DNA of 63,115 nucleotides, the filler included, from Reclinomonas americana ATCC 50394 (taxonomy: Eukaryota): NCBI GenBank assembly GCA_048213135.1. It is 5 parts of 2 records of this genome, joined end to end, with 100 filler letters (N's around TTAATTAATTAA, not from the genome) between each part and the next. Parts side by side here need not be neighbours in the genome. Positions count along the whole stretch, not along the records: positions 1 to 13,252 come from PS015174.1; positions 13,353 to 18,726 come from PS015174.1; positions 18,827 to 42,838 come from PS015174.1; positions 42,939 to 50,121 come from PS015175.1; positions 50,222 to 63,115 come from PS015175.1. One strand, given 5' to 3'. A program made the translations under genes and the position numbers. This document shows, piece after piece, positions 272-62,712 of the stretch. Numbering within the stretch: the stretch's first letter is position 1; each line of letters starts with the position of its first letter. The notes below the pieces were generated by a model, which ran no database searches, had not been told where the DNA came from, and saw only the letters and a program-made list of their open reading frames with translations.

Positions 272-3200
272 GAGCCTCGGCATCATTATGCACAAGAGCG
301 ACGAATCGGCCTATTCGCCACTCGGCAAGTGGTGGATGATTAGCCACTTTTGGCTCATGCTCTACATTACGGCATTAGTTCCATTACGAGTTCAGTGCTG
401 GCTCACTTGCCTGTGTGATGTAATTCGCGAGACTTATCTTGCCTCTCGTATCACTGCAGGCCGCATTCCGCTCCGCAGCCACAGCTCCGTGGATTGTGCT
501 GGATGGGCTCATTGACTTGGCGATTGTGGCCGATATTATCTTTCACTTTCGCAATCCGTACTACGAGGGCGGCGATGTGATTCGCGACAAGAAAAAGATT
601 GTCACGCACTACCTCAAGGGCTGGTTCATTATCGATCTGCTCACGGTGCTGCCGTTTGAGGTGTTTTGGGTGGTCACGGGCATTGAGCCGCTGCTGCGCG
701 TGAATCGCACGTTGAGGTACTGTGTGGGGCGGGGGTTGTGGATGTCGCTGCACTGAATTCTGAGTCCTCTCTCTGCGCACCTTCCTGTCTGTGCATCTTC
801 CTGTGTCCTGCACCATCAGTTCGCCTGTCTCCGTCCTTCTCTCTCTGTCTCTCTTTTCTTTCTCTCTGCGCACTTGAGTGTTTGTTCTCTACTCTTCGAT
901 GTGACTGTCTCCGTGTCTGTACACCTTCGTCTATCTGTCGCTACCTCAGTACTTTCTTCGTGTGACTCTCGCTTCCCTTTCTCTCACTCTCTGGATGTAC
1001 CCCTTTAAGCGTCCGCCACCCTTTAGTCTGACTGTATCTTCGCTTTCTCCGCCTCTCTCTCTCTCTCTCTCTTGAGTGTCTTCCTGTGTCCTTCACTCAT
1101 TCAGTCAATCTGTCTCTTCGCTTTCTCCGTCTCTCTCTTCTCTTTTCTCTTTCTCTCTCTCTCTCTGTCCGTACTTGCATGCCCCGTGTGTCCTCCGCTC
1201 TTCGTCTGACTATCTCTTCACTTTCTCTCTTTCTCTCTCCCTTTATCCTTCTCTGTCTGGTCGTGTATCCTGCACTCTTCAGGCTGATCGTCTCTTCACT
1301 TTCTCCATCTCTTTCTCTCTCTTTGCGAACTTGATTGCCTTCCTCTTCAATCTGACTGTATCCATGTCTTCTCTCTCTTTTCTCTCCCGCTTTGCTTTGT
1401 CTGCCTCCTACCATCTCTCACTGTCACGGCATCTCTCTCTCTCTCTCTTTCTCTCTCTGCATGCTTGCTGTGCCCTCCATTCTCTCCGCTTCCGTTTCCC
1501 ACTCGCGCTTCCCCTTCCACCCCCTTCCCCTTTCCACCCTTTCCCTAATATCCCCTTCCCCTCCACCAGGCTCCTCCGCTACGGCCTCTACTTCAACTTC
1601 CTTATCCGACACACCAAGCTCAACCCCACCCTCGTCGCCATTTCGCAATTCGTGCTCTTTGTCTTCCTCGTCACGCATTTCGTGGCCTGCTTCTTCTTCG
1701 TTTTTGTGCAAATCGAGGGCGACACCGGCTCGGCGCAGTGGGTCTCCTCGCTTCCGCTACGAACAATGCCACTCCTCACGCAGTACCTCTTCTCGTTCTG
1801 GTGGGCCATTGTGACGCTGACGGGTGTCGGTGGAACGCAACCGATGACCAATTTGGAGTACGGCTACTCGCTGTTCACGGTGCTGCTCGGTGTGGCCATG
1901 TTCGTGGCCATCATCGGTTACGTCGGCTCGTTGGTGACGGAGCTCGGTGCCGTGTTGCGTCTTTTTTTTTCTTCCGGCTCCCTTTAGCTTCTCTCTCTCT
2001 CCCCCTTCACTCACTCTCTTTCTTCCCCCCACTGGCAGAGAGGCCGATTTCCGCTCCAAGGTCGACTCGGTGAACGAGTACATGCGGTACCGCAACATTG
2101 GCAAGCCGCTGCAGAAAAAGGTCCGCCAGTACTACAAGTACATGTGGAAGACACGTGCGGGCATTGATGAGGCCCAGGTGCGTTTGCGCGGGCACAGCAG
2201 ATTGTTTCGGTCGAAGAACTCACCACCACCTCCTTTGCTCTTTTGCGCAGGTGCTGGACCAACTGCCGGCCTACATTCGCTTCGAGGTCACCAAGTACCT
2301 GTACAAGGGCCTCGTCTCGAAAGTGCCCCTCTTCCACACGGCCGACGCCGAGTTTGTGCGCTCCATTATCGGTAGCATCAAGCCGCGCGTCTTCCTGCCC
2401 GACACGTGGGTCATTCGCAAGGGCGAGATCGGACGTGAGATGTACATTATCGGCAAGGGGCAGGTGGAGGTGGTGGGCGACGAGGACGCCAATGGCATGC
2501 GACCGGTGTTTGCGACGCTAAAGGATGGCGATTTCTTTGGTGAAATCGCCCTTCTCATGAATCAGCCGCGTAACGCCAGCATCCGCACCAAGGGCTACTG
2601 CGAGTTGTACGTGCTGATGCAGGAGAGCTTCAACCAGGTGAGACAAAGCGGGGAGAGAAGAAATGATTTCCGAATTCCCTGCTCTCACCCTTTGTCTATC
2701 TCGCAGACCATGGACGACTATCCCGACCAGCGCGAAAAGATCTACGAAGTGGCACGTACGCGCTACAATGCCGCCATTGAGTCGGCATCGTCGGCGGCCA
2801 GGGTGCGCACCGGCTCGATCTCGTACGGCAACAGCCGGCGGGCCATGAGCAGGCGCACGCTCAAGTCGTCGCGCGAGAACTCGCAACGCTCGCTGTCAGG
2901 CACGTTGCATGGCCTCCGCCATCAGATAGTCAAAATGTGCTCACCAATCGCCACAGGTGCCGACTCGATGCGTCGCATGTCGACGAGGAGGAGAAGCGGG
3001 CAGGCATTGCAATCGATGACTGACGGTGCGTTATCTCTGGTCTCCCTCTCTTTTGTTTCCCCCCAACTCATTGACGAGTCCATTGCAGATCCCAGTTCTG
3101 CAGCCGCCGACTCACCCGGTTGCGTTGCCACCGCCCGCCCGACCTGTTATTCATCGTGCATGCTGCTCACTTCCTTGCTCCCACCAGACGCCACCTCCGC

Positions 3201-3459
3201 CGCTTCGGAAACCAACGGCGGTCTCCTGTTCTCACCGCAAAAGGCAAGTCTCCCTCACTTCCCCCACCATCATTGCCTCATCTCTCAACTCCGTCGTCGT
3301 TCCAGATGCGTGAGGGTGCCGTCCCCGAGTCACTGCCTTCGGAACAGTCGGCTGGTACGTTGCTGCATTTATTTTCCAGCACTTTTCTACGGTGTATTTA
3401 TCGTGTCCTCCCTACGCGCAGCTGCCTCGTCGGTGATGAGCCCCACTAATGATGACTAA
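272..3459 (+). CDS. Cyclic-nucleotide-gated/KCNH-like cation channel, multi-exon, 5' end outside window
   Basis: Spliced exons give YLKGWFIIDLLTVLPF, LRVNRTLRLLR (S4), pore FWWAIVTLTGVG, C-linker (VNEYMRYRNI..LQKKVRQYY) and cNMP-binding domain (GEIGREMYII..GDFFGEIALL..RNASIR). Stop TAA at 3457-3459. Confidence 0.9.
727..1560 (+). repeat. CT-rich low-complexity/microsatellite intron
   Basis: Degenerate (CT)n tract inside GT-AG intron 717-1569. Similar tracts fill most long introns in the window. Confidence 0.85.
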
Positions 3460-3522
3460 AGAAAATGAAACAAACAAAAACGAACCTGTTGCTGCATTGC
3501 ATCGTCGTCCTCTCGTTTATCA

Positions 3523-60557: not shown

Positions 60558-61030
60558 ATCTTGAGGTCGTGGAGAGGAGCACCAAATGATCGTTGAATGA
60601 ACGAATGTGCCCCAATTTTGAGATTACTATGAGTGGCCGATAGAAGCCAAAGAGTGGTGGGGGACGAGACGAAAGGCATTTGCAGCGGAGGGAATGGAGA
60701 TCGAGATCGAGACAACTGTAAGGACGAAATGTTCGAGTATTTCGATATCTGAAGTTTCTCGTTGACAAGATACCCTGTTGAGTGTCCTTGCAGTTCTCTC
60801 TCTCTCGCACACTCTGCAAGAGACAAGCAACGAAGAACAGTCTTCGCAACTGTCTCTTTCTCCGCCTATTTGCCCTCGAGCCACAACAACAACAAACCCA
60901 TCACTCGTACAATGACTATAATCCGACTTAATGATCAAGCTGCAATGTCACTGGTAGGTTGACTTTCATTGTCACCACGCAACAAGTGCTCACTGCCCTA
61001 ACCCCTCAGTCGCACGAAATGTCTCTCCGT

Positions 61031-62712
61031 TTAAGGTGAGACCGGGAGCACCACAGGGAACGAGATCTGCACAAAGAAGCCCGACACGAACACAAACTCC
61101 ACGTCCGACAGGTTGTTCAGCACAAAGTCCGAGGCGCCCACGATCGGCGAGCCGTTGTAGGTGATCGTCACCGCCACACCAGTGACCGGATCCATACCGT
61201 TGACAATGCGCAGGCGGAAGCCGTCCACTGGCGCGGTGCCGGTGATCTCGTCGGCCAGATCCAGGAAGCTGGGGCCACCAGCGCACGACGTGCCCGTAAT
61301 AACAAAGAGCGAGGCGTCGAGCGCCACCGACGACACTGCACTGCAGTCAGCCGTCACAATACGGGTGGCAGTGGCCTGCAGGCGGCTCGAAACGAGGCGC
61401 GAGGCAGTCACGTCGGCCGCCGACACGGCACCAGTGGCCGTCACGTTGCCCGAGTCGTCGGCCTGCACAGCGGACGTGCCGACCTGCAGCGACGAAGTGG
61501 CGTACACCGACGCACCGGTCACCGAAGCGCCCGCCGTCACGTTGCCGGCGGTGGCGATAATGTCGCCCGTAGTGGCCGTGATCGACTTGCCGGCCACCAC
61601 ATCGTTGGCGACCGACACACCGCCGCTCGGCGCCGTCAAGTTGCCACCCGACGACGACACATCGTTCGTGCCCGTCACCGAGTCGGCAGTGAGCGAGGTG
61701 CCGACGTTGAGGCTGGTGGTGATGTTGCCGATGTTGCCGCGCAGAATGCCATTGGCGACCACCGAGCCAGCGGTCATCGAGCTGGTCACCGTCAACTTGC
61801 CGCCAACCGACGAGTCACCACTCGCCTCCAGCGACTTGGCGCTGACCGTGCCGTCCGAGGCCACCAGGCCACCCGTGCTGGCAACGAACGAGGCGCCCGT
61901 CACGACCTGGGAGACATTGACGCCGCCATTGGAGGCCACAAAGCTGCCGTTGCTCGTCGTGAAATCCTTGTCGGCCTTCACCGAATCGGCAGAGACCTGG
62001 CCGCCGGCCGTCACGTCGGCGACAAGCGTAGCTTCCTGGCCGCTGAGGCTGCCGCCAGCCGACACCGAACCCACATTGGCGACGCCGACCACAGTCAGAT
62101 TGGCACCGACCCACGCGTCACCAGTGGACTGCAGCTGGCCACCGCGCAGCAAGCCCGGGGTGGTCAGATCCTGGCAGCTGCCGGCATCCCACGATACTGG
62201 CGCGCACTGATCGCAGGCGGCGCCCGTGGCGCGAGCGCTGCACACACAGGCTCCCGTGGTCGGGTTGCACGTGCCGTTGCCGCTGCAGGTTACGGCCGCG
62301 TTGCAGAACTTGCTGCAGTCGGCGCCATAGTAGTTGGCGTTGCAGACGCACTTGTTCTGCATGGCGTCGTAGGAGCCGTTGCCGGAGCACACCAGGCAGT
62401 TGGGACCGGTGCCCGTCAGGCACAGGCACGAGCCGTCCGACAGGCACAGGCCGTTGCCGGAGCACTTGACGGCGGCGTTGCAGGCTGCGGGGGTGTTGAT
62501 CAGCGTCGGGTAGCCGCCGGCCGCCTGGCCGCACAGAGGGAAGCCGCGGTTGTCGTAGTTGGGCGAGCAGGCGTCGCAGCGAGGGCCCTCTAAAGGGGGG
62601 AGGGAGGGGGTGAGGAAAAGGGGGATGGGGAAGGATGCGGGATAAGAAAAGAAGGACGCAACGGTACTGAATGTTGCAGACGCACGCGCCGTTGACGCAG
62701 TTGCCTCCGGGC
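61031..62712 (-). CDS. EGF/laminin-EGF repeat protein with long G/A/V/S/T-rich beta-solenoid C-terminus (5' end beyond window)
   Basis: CSGNGxC..C.C..G..C repeats, then about 300 aa of short repeats such as AGNVTA and GGKLTV in one long exon. Stop TAA at 61031. Confidence 0.8.

Follow-up and report, generated by a model that had tools for sequence, protein, structure and literature searches.

The pairing of U1 with the 5' splice site is viewed as flexible and centred on a single register, and human sites that use a shifted register are a rare exception on a GUAAGU consensus. In human, U1 is established to pair with some sites in a shifted and with others in a bulged register (Tan et al. 2016, PMC4856993), where the +1 shifted register of atypical 5' splice sites (Roca and Krainer 2009) is cited and illustrated, and where the legend of Figure 1C cites the bulge +3 (or +2) register (Roca et al. 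2012). In Micromonas, AG|GTGCGT is the canonical donor, and the coexistence of several intron classes is reported (Verhelst et al. 2013, PMC3879977). Here, we analysed a stretch of 63,115 bases from Reclinomonas americana ATCC 50394 (GenBank assembly GCA_048213135.1), hereafter referred to as the window, in which a first-pass annotation had described a class of introns with the donor N|GTTGCG next to ordinary donors of the type G|GTGCGT. On balance, we favour the view that these are genuine U2-type GT-AG introns in which the donor (A)G|GTGCGT is displaced by one base to (A)|GTTGCGT and is recognised in a +1 shifted register.

In order to evaluate this class, we inspected the 30 donors listed in the first-pass annotation. 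GT was found at the given base and strand in all of them (30/30) and GTTGCG in 25/30, and the five exceptions read exactly as written: GTTCAGT (390), GTTTCGT (44504 and 13075), GTTGTGT (6204) and GTTGCAT (37205). The exon-terminal base over these sites was likewise reproduced, with A in 16, C in 6, T in 5 and G in 3 cases. Across the whole window, GTTGCGT occurs 33 times compared to an expected 10.43 ± 3.21, a count reached by none of 100 shuffled sequences. Raw 7-mer enrichment was swamped by microsatellites; among the non-periodic heptamers starting with GT, GTTGCGT is the second most over-represented in the window. The microsatellites that dominate the k-mer excess are of the (CT)n, (GT)n and (CCT)n type and mostly lie within introns (e.g. 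44680-44702 and 36790-36850). Hexamers were also counted 12-100 nucleotides (nt) upstream, on the same strand, of 200 acceptor-like motifs (CTNAY...YAG), and here TTGCGT (z 4.4) and GTTGCG (z 3.4) were among the most enriched hexamers that are not pyrimidine tracts.

In total, GTTGCG accounts for 76 of the 7436 GT sites in the window (1.0%). Without any gene model, the preceding base is A in 25/76 and G in 8/76 copies, counts that are diluted by non-functional copies of the motif. A short-intron architecture follows 20/25 of the claimed GTTGCG sites and 15/51 of the unclaimed copies, while the values for eleven composition-matched control hexamers range between 29 and 47%. Inside predicted genes, 27 of the unclaimed copies are antisense and 11 are sense, and a sense-strand GTTGCG within a predicted gene is a claimed donor in 25/36 cases. 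These results suggest that GTTGCG is avoided in sense-strand exons. Six unclaimed copies show an intron-like architecture downstream, namely 8494(+), 32465(-), 17222(-), 59074(+), 49052(-) and 54705(+), and may represent further donors of the class; the copy at 32465(-) was selected by our gene parser.

The predicted N|GTT junctions are supported at 26 of the 30 sites. Seven were fixed exactly by homology (1954, 36291, 37075, 38654, 44399, 44504 and 56821), where GT...AG ends restore the frame of a conserved protein, and a further 19 are supported by frame and motif and restore long open reading frames (ORFs). The earlier reading of these junctions holds for most of the set, and no model could be settled at 390, 8229, 8390 and 38932. 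The first exact anchor is found in a cyclic-nucleotide-gated channel gene, in which a phase 2 GTTGCGT intron (1954..2038, +) was the best of eight in-frame GT-AG alternatives (173.6 vs 165.4) and gave gap-free alignments to the homologues P0218 and P0219. In the temptin gene, a phase 0 GTTGCGG intron (38654..38717, +; ELG|DPCC) is flanked by exons matching positions 41-75 and 76-97 of the Pfam profile Temptin_C, which is thus contiguous across the junction. The gene of a UCH37-type hydrolase carries a phase 2 GTTGCGT intron (56821..56881, +), whose flanking exons reach residue 46 of the PDB chain 3a7s_A upstream and resume at residue 48 downstream, with residue 47 encoded by the split codon. 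Two further anchors lie in a gene for a CHX-type cation/H+ exchanger. Its phase 1 GTTGCGT intron at 36218..36291 (-) is the better of only two in-frame GT-AG options (123.9 vs 99.5) and is gap-free to P0018, and its phase 1 GTTGCGC intron at 36990..37075 (-; GGN|PL) is gap-free to both P0127 and P0018. The homologues spanning these two junctions without gaps are plant and chytrid proteins.

The remaining two exact junctions are located in a gene for a GH47 mannosidase and enclose a micro-exon of only 34 nt (44470..44503, +), which was identified by homology and skipped by every version of our parsers. It is preceded by a phase 1 GTTGCGT intron (44399..44469, +) and followed by a phase 2 GTTTCGT intron (44504..44573, +; GDSY|FEY). 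The exon upstream of 44399 ends at position 204-205 of the GH47 profile and the exon downstream of 44504 starts at position 218; the profile gap of 13 residues (205-217) equals the micro-exon together with two split codons. Compared with seven homologues, this model scored best in 7/7 cases (mean 154.9 vs 140.9, 105.7 and 79.6) and was gap-free to P0004. The model scoring 140.9 uses a GTAGTT donor 3 nt upstream of 44504 and lost in all seven homologues, and two models skipping the micro-exon were outscored as well. In the case of 44399 and 44504, the downstream exon begins with a base other than G, and moving both intron ends by one base would yield a different mRNA; the predicted cleavage at these sites therefore falls directly before GT.

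As a complementary approach, genes were predicted with donor-blind parsers that received only "GT" as donor input and relied on coding potential, frame consistency and the presence of a branch point and AG. GTTGCG emerged as the top donor hexamer in the first passes of two of these parsers (4/40 and 5/55), tied for second place in the crudest one (4/60, behind GTGTGT at 7) and ranked first after iterative learning (16/115). The first parser, which used codon usage only and a strict branch point, was noisy and skipped micro-exons. Adding 27 hand-checked introns to the output of the last parser resulted in a catalogue of 119 predicted introns, which is approximate because this parser misses 15/30 claimed sites, including the exactly anchored junctions at 38654, 44399, 44504 and 36291. 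By donor, the catalogue comprises 49 GTR, 25 GTTGCG, 28 other GTT and 17 GTC introns, the latter being probably mostly false. The 49 GTR donors served as the ordinary class, and the 25 GTTGCG introns consist of 23 hand-checked claimed sites, the site at 38932 and the unclaimed copy at 32465(-). The resulting proportion of 25/119 (21%) is close to the 30 of about 130 introns estimated previously. Positions -4 to -1 provided no input to the parser's donor score.

Next, we compared both classes within this catalogue, and the contrasts given below are indicative rather than final. In their general layout, GTTGCG introns resemble ordinary ones: the median length is 70 and 71 nt, respectively, and the distance of the branch point and the CAG acceptor are alike. 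A CT[CAG]AY motif is found 13-28 nt from the 3' end in 20/25 GTTGCG introns, with a similar spread in the ordinary class, and the acceptor position -3 is C in 22/25; the branch-point-like motif and the pyrimidine/CAG acceptor of the bulk introns are therefore present here as well. Beyond +7, GTTGCG introns share no sequence, and the information content is about zero from +8 onwards. Considering this agreement with ordinary introns and the lack of sequence shared past +7, the class is neither a repeat family nor U12-type. U12 introns have distinctive donor and branch-point motifs, and we rejected them as an explanation, since GTTGCG donors are combined with CTNAY branch points as in ordinary introns.

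The differences between the classes are concentrated at the donor. At position -1, G is found in 2/25 GTTGCG introns compared to 28/49 ordinary ones (Fisher p = 3.9e-5), a check on the catalogue that bears out the suggested dependence on the last exon base, and A is found in 11/25 compared to 6/49 (p = 0.0035). For comparison, A occupies position -2 in 16/49 ordinary donors. A further contrast, which the first-pass annotation had not noted, concerns the intron phase, with phase 0 in 4/25 GTTGCG and 27/49 ordinary introns (p = 0.0013). Finally, the fifth letter is C in 25/28 GTTG.G donors, whereas C is found at the corresponding ordinary position +4 in 21/49. The GTTGCG class is thus far tighter than the ordinary donors and not relaxed, which is at odds with the earlier proposal of a relaxed spliceosome. 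Donors of the form G|GTTTGT were observed at 36854(-), 14028(-), 4517(+), 4300(+) and 26728(+), the first of which is anchored gap-free by CHX homologues. They carry T at +3, yet the ordinary +5 G and +6 T are retained and, in most cases, the -1 G as well; these are donors in the ordinary register with a +3 T and are separate from the displaced GTTGCG class.

To determine the register, the GTTGCG class was scored with the matrix of ordinary donors over positions -2 to +8 at four offsets, and separately over the flanking positions -2, -1, +7 and +8, which lie outside the motif definition. The log-likelihood ratio was positive only at offset +1 (+52.3; flanks +9.1), whereas offset 0 (-103.4; flanks -20.1), offset -1 (-202.5; flanks -71.9) and offset +2 (-325.0; flanks -55.2) were all negative. 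In agreement with this, the G-C-G-T block is located at +4 to +7 in the GTTGCG class instead of +3 to +6 in ordinary donors, and T at +7 occurs in 18/25 GTTGCG donors, compared to 27/49 for the ordinary +6 T and 9/49 for the ordinary +7 T. The proposed one-base offset between A|GTTGCGT and AG|GTGCGT is supported by the sign of these ratios and by the depletion of -1 G: the consensus is displaced while the predicted cleavage stays before GU, and -1 G is lost. A shifted register is thus supported statistically, while the mechanism behind it is a proposal.

According to this proposal, the first G of the intron would occupy the place in the recognition helix that is normally taken by the last G of the exon, and the base preceding the junction would take the place of the usual -2 A. 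U1-type base pairing would read the displaced signal, and cleavage would still occur directly before GU, presumably fixed by the later steps involving U6, U5 and Prp8. Since the whole signal would be intronic, no exon end in ...AG would be needed, which would explain the preference for phases 1 and 2. With G+C-rich third codon positions, ...AG| would suit phase 0, where codons end in G, while in phases 1 and 2 the encoded amino acid would dictate how the exon ends; the distribution over phases agrees with this scenario. What the gene models establish are the predicted introns, with exact boundaries for seven of them, together with the displacement of the consensus, the depletion of -1 G and the skewed phase distribution.

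Several observations weigh against a simple shift of the register. For the pairing calculation, we took the standard 11-nt U1 5' end from PMC4856993, a sequence that may not be the organism's own, and the mean duplex energy was only -0.84 kcal/mol for GTTGCG compared to -5.62 for ordinary donors; with this U1 end the shifted register was optimal in only 1/25 GTTGCG donors. When a toy U1 complementary to GUGCGU was used instead, the shifted duplex with A at -1 reached -8.4, but G at -1 gave a more stable bulged duplex of -12.0, so that the scarcity of -1 G is not accounted for by thermodynamics alone. The excess of -1 A is only modest relative to the neutral composition at the respective codon positions. 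Moreover, the rigidity of the class (25/28 vs 21/49 C) could be a compensation for an internal mismatch, and a dedicated partner would fit equally well. The 49 ordinary donors were derived from a parser with known errors while the GTTGCG set was mostly hand-checked, meaning that the two were not ascertained equally, and the introns are known here from genomic sequence alone. As the standard U1 pairs poorly in every register, plain shifted pairing to the textbook U1 would not be enough; either the U1 of this organism would differ from the textbook or another partner or extra factors would take part. The preference of ordinary donors for C at +4 is likewise not accounted for by the textbook U1. 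This would call for a U1 that is altered opposite +3/+4, or else for a contribution by a second isoform of a small nuclear RNA (snRNA) or by protein factors.

Such a dedicated snRNA isoform, which could be a U1 with a substitution at the nucleotide normally opposite +1/+2, would pair contiguously with A|GUUGCGU and establish two parallel codes for the 5' splice site. The near-invariant heptamer (C in 25/28 GTTG.G donors, T at +7 in 18/25) next to degenerate ordinary donors would be expected under this alternative, as would the very poor pairing of the standard U1 in every register and the fact that both donor classes are discrete, with no continuum between them. In contrast, GTTTCGT (44504), GTTGTGT (6204) and GTTGCAT (37205) are used at well-supported introns and mirror the variation of the ordinary class, which would be expected if one reader served both classes, and the branch point and acceptor are identical to those of ordinary introns. 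We consider a dedicated isoform unlikely but deserving of serious consideration. A touch less likely still is the broader version with two genome-wide donor codes, AG|GTGCGT and an intronic GTTGCGT, the latter being served by its own U1 or one with an altered 5' end. If true, the AG|GTGCGT code would lean on the exon end and dominate phase 0 sites, while the GTTGCGT code would free introns of any need for exon sequence and so fill phases 1 and 2.

Alternatively, the same U1 could bind in the ordinary register with one U of +2/+3 bulged. Placing G-C-G-T at +4 to +7 is explained equally well in this way, the register is documented in human (legend of Figure 1C in PMC4856993), and it is the optimum duplex in the toy calculation when -1 is G. 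However, a bulge keeps the exon positions and hence predicts G at -1, which was found in 2/25 GTTGCG compared to 28/49 ordinary donors and in 3/30 of the claimed sites. We therefore prefer the shifted register and regard a bulge as improbable.

An assembly artefact, in which the extra T is a consensus error and the true donors read N|GTGCGT, appears very unlikely. The window does show traits of a draft: each of the blocks 13253-13352, 18727-18826, 42839-42938 and 50122-50221 consists of 44 N, a 12-base spacer with stops in all six frames (TTAATTAATTAA) and again 44 N. These four blocks are contig linkers, and the sequence is accordingly a draft scaffold, with the N runs as gaps in the assembly; furthermore, reading frames are blind to an additional intronic base. 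Nevertheless, such an error would have to strike only donors without -1 G (2/25 vs 28/49), single-T A|GTGCGT donors exist in the same assembly (e.g. 16794 and 56982), no frameshifts interrupt the long exons with family matches, which reach about 480 codons, and the motif is strand-specific inside genes. Equally remote is the idea that the introns were mis-traced and that the motif arose by chance or has a role outside splicing, with the real junctions elsewhere. Four of the 30 sites (390, 8229, 8390 and 38932) have no settled model, nineteen sites are supported by frame and motif only, and the parsers at times took nearby GTs, but this explanation is already largely refuted by the seven exact anchors, the threefold excess of the motif, its emergence from donor-blind parsing and the contrast in architecture (20/25 vs 15/51). 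The least probable explanation, namely recently inserted introner-like elements that share a conserved 5' end, would account for some introns having a very tight donor, as known from the Micromonas introner classes (PMC3879977), but blastn among the 25 GTTGCG introns returned only low-complexity matches of 11-12 nt, no stronger than among ordinary introns, and no similarity past +7 was found.

Besides the exactly anchored junctions, the class includes the 19 predicted junctions supported by frame and motif, six of which were assigned with partial matches to protein families or structures. In the ferric-reductase/NOX gene, a phase 2 GTTGCGT intron (40367..40440, +) is followed by an exon matching Ferric_reduct 2-42 from its residue 10, and a phase 0 GTTGCGT intron (41008..41073, +) separates Ferric_reduct 81-120 from FAD_binding_8; the latter junction falls into a variable loop and is not exactly anchored on PDB structures. 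The downstream exon of a phase 2 GTTGCGC intron in a ROK-family kinase gene (21080..21141, -) matches the ROK profile 73-114 from residue 2. For the phase 1 GTTTCGT intron of the CDK5RAP3 gene (13019..13075, -), residue 3 of the downstream exon corresponds to chain residue 65 of 8ohd_B, and the upstream exon has no PDB match, so that the junction is not exactly anchored. A phase 1 GTTGCGC intron of the SRP19 gene (18228..18297, -) was chosen by a donor-blind parser; its upstream exon matches SRP19 and its downstream exon is too short for anchoring. In a TIP41-like gene, a phase 2 GTTGTGT intron (6129..6204, -) is supported by frame and parsers, and a weak TIP41 match was detected in the downstream exon.

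Five of the predicted GTTGCG donors are found in a single gene for a Nod19-like secreted protein. Its hand model comprises 11 exons that read from the ATG to the stop codon without a break in frame, and GTTGCG donors occur in 5/10 introns: phase 1 GTTGCGT introns at 13679..13748 (-; hand model), 14131..14195 (-; hand model and parser) and 14460..14528 (-; hand model and parsers), a phase 2 GTTGCGT intron at 14585..14684 (-; hand model and parsers) and a phase 2 GTTGCGC intron at 14799..14898 (-; hand model), downstream of which the exon shows a weak match to SURNod19 35-64. The gene itself (13390-15233, -) has a signal-peptide-like start and a His-rich C-terminus, and its SURNod19 match is weak (E = 0.15, one exon).

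For the remaining eight predicted introns of this group, frame, architecture and parser choice provide the evidence. Donor-blind parsing selected a phase 2 GTTGCGT intron joining ORFs of 427 and 274 codons (9601..9680, +) and a phase 1 GTTGCGT intron (25156..25231, +). The phase 2 GTTGCGC intron of an FSIP1-like gene (19523..19586, +) was chosen by parsers and has a single compatible frame. In the unconserved C-terminal tail of the channel gene, a phase 1 GTTGCGT intron (3119..3187, +) is supported by frame and a CTCAC...CAG architecture only. Frame and architecture only also support a phase 1 GTTGCGT intron in a low-complexity N-terminal region (39886..39948, +), for which the parser favoured a GT 6 nt upstream. 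At the variable N-terminus of the CHX gene, the evidence for a phase 1 GTTGCAT intron (37103..37205, -) is frame only, and the alignment with P0127 contains a gap of one residue three residues past the junction. A phase 1 GTTGCGT intron at 47336..47401 (-; GILP|I) was obtained by hand reading and frame in a gene with no family match. Lastly, a phase 1 GTTGCGT intron in a gene with laminin/teneurin-type EGF repeats (62590..62662, -) joins ORFs of 150 and 518 codons, and the cysteine spacing runs on across the junction.

At the four other sites, different models compete or none fits. For the claimed GTTCAGT donor at 390..396 (+), no acceptor yields the frame of the Ion_trans-matching exon, and the parser took 378 instead. 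Two sites belong to a gene without homologues: the claimed GTTGCGT donor at 8229..8235 (+) allows several acceptors and frames, on which the parsers disagree, and the GTTGCGT donor at 8390 (8390..8595, +) has competing models with an ambiguous acceptor at either 8472 or 8595. The claimed GTTGCGC donor at 38932..38938 (+) is part of only a 401-nt parser intron running through CT-rich sequence, and a strict search at this site found no branch point plus AG.

The window has a G+C content of about 58% (N runs excluded) and encodes a cyclic-nucleotide-gated channel, PTPA, CDK5RAP3, a kinesin, SRP19, an FSIP1-like protein, a ROK kinase, a CHX-type cation/H+ exchanger, temptin, a NOX/ferric reductase, a GH47 mannosidase, a UCH37-type hydrolase and an EGF-repeat protein. 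Their closest protein homologues share 42-55% identity and come from chytrid fungi and plants, with 42% as the best value for GH47. An Rfam scan of all 63,115 bases gave no matches and thus no snRNA. Scanning metagenomes retrieved no close relative of the GH47 protein and a best match of 49% identity for the cyclic-nucleotide-binding exon, and a homologue search with the NOX exon found none. For the same cyclic-nucleotide-binding exon (2251-2637, +), a relative of 143 residues with 74% identity (P0140) was present in an assembly of a public sequencing run; it is confined within this single exon and carries no junction information. Judged from P0140, a fairly close relative of the source organism has already been sequenced.

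Taken together, these data lend statistical support to raising the shifted-register 5' splice site from a rarity to a putative major class. If about one fifth of the introns indeed use a displaced, nearly invariant donor, this would show that a second U1 specificity or an alternative register is able to become mainstream and be selected for. It would provide a natural system with thousands of sites at which U1 positioning is uncoupled from the later choice of the cleavage site. A benefit is suggested by the phase bias, as a self-contained intronic donor is usable at positions where the coding sequence rules out an exon end in AG. For genome annotation, gene finders with a single donor matrix will mis-splice about 20% of the introns in this organism, and our own parser mis-spliced the GTTGCG class until it was learned.

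Among the literature matches listed, in a search whose coverage left many journals outside, we found no description of a GTTGCG donor class or of an organism with a large shifted class, and the listed matches to the strings GTTGCG, GUUGCG and GTTGCGT were only primer-like coincidences. Of the listed papers on shifted registers, including PMC13326754, none describes such a donor class. With regard to Micromonas, the ordinary donor consensus of the window is identical to the canonical one, and as AG|GTGCGT is canonical there, the ordinary class is unremarkable. No GTTGCG class was seen in the portion of PMC3879977 available to us, and what defines the classes in Micromonas is either a repeat sequence or the region of the genome, whereas the GTTGCG class has neither basis. 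Like U12-type introns, it is a minority class with a much tighter 5' consensus that occurs in the same genes as the majority class; unlike them, it combines a GTTGCGT donor with a CTNAY branch point 13-28 nt from the 3' end and a CAG acceptor, the last two features being those of the ordinary class.

The closest parallels are the human registers. With the bulge +3 (or +2) register, the GTTGCG donors have in common the one extra nucleotide after GU, but this register predicts that -1 G is kept, whereas it is depleted here, which is why we prefer the shifted to the bulged register. Unlike the human +1 shifted sites, the present class is defined from sequence alone, and it pairs poorly with the standard U1 end. 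As in those sites, cleavage is predicted before GU, an extra U is present, the remaining consensus is displaced by one base, and the exon-terminal base behaves as the usual -2 position. Unlike those sites, the GTTGCG donors account for about one fifth of the introns in 63 kb, build on a GUGCGU consensus and take the form of a near-invariant heptamer.

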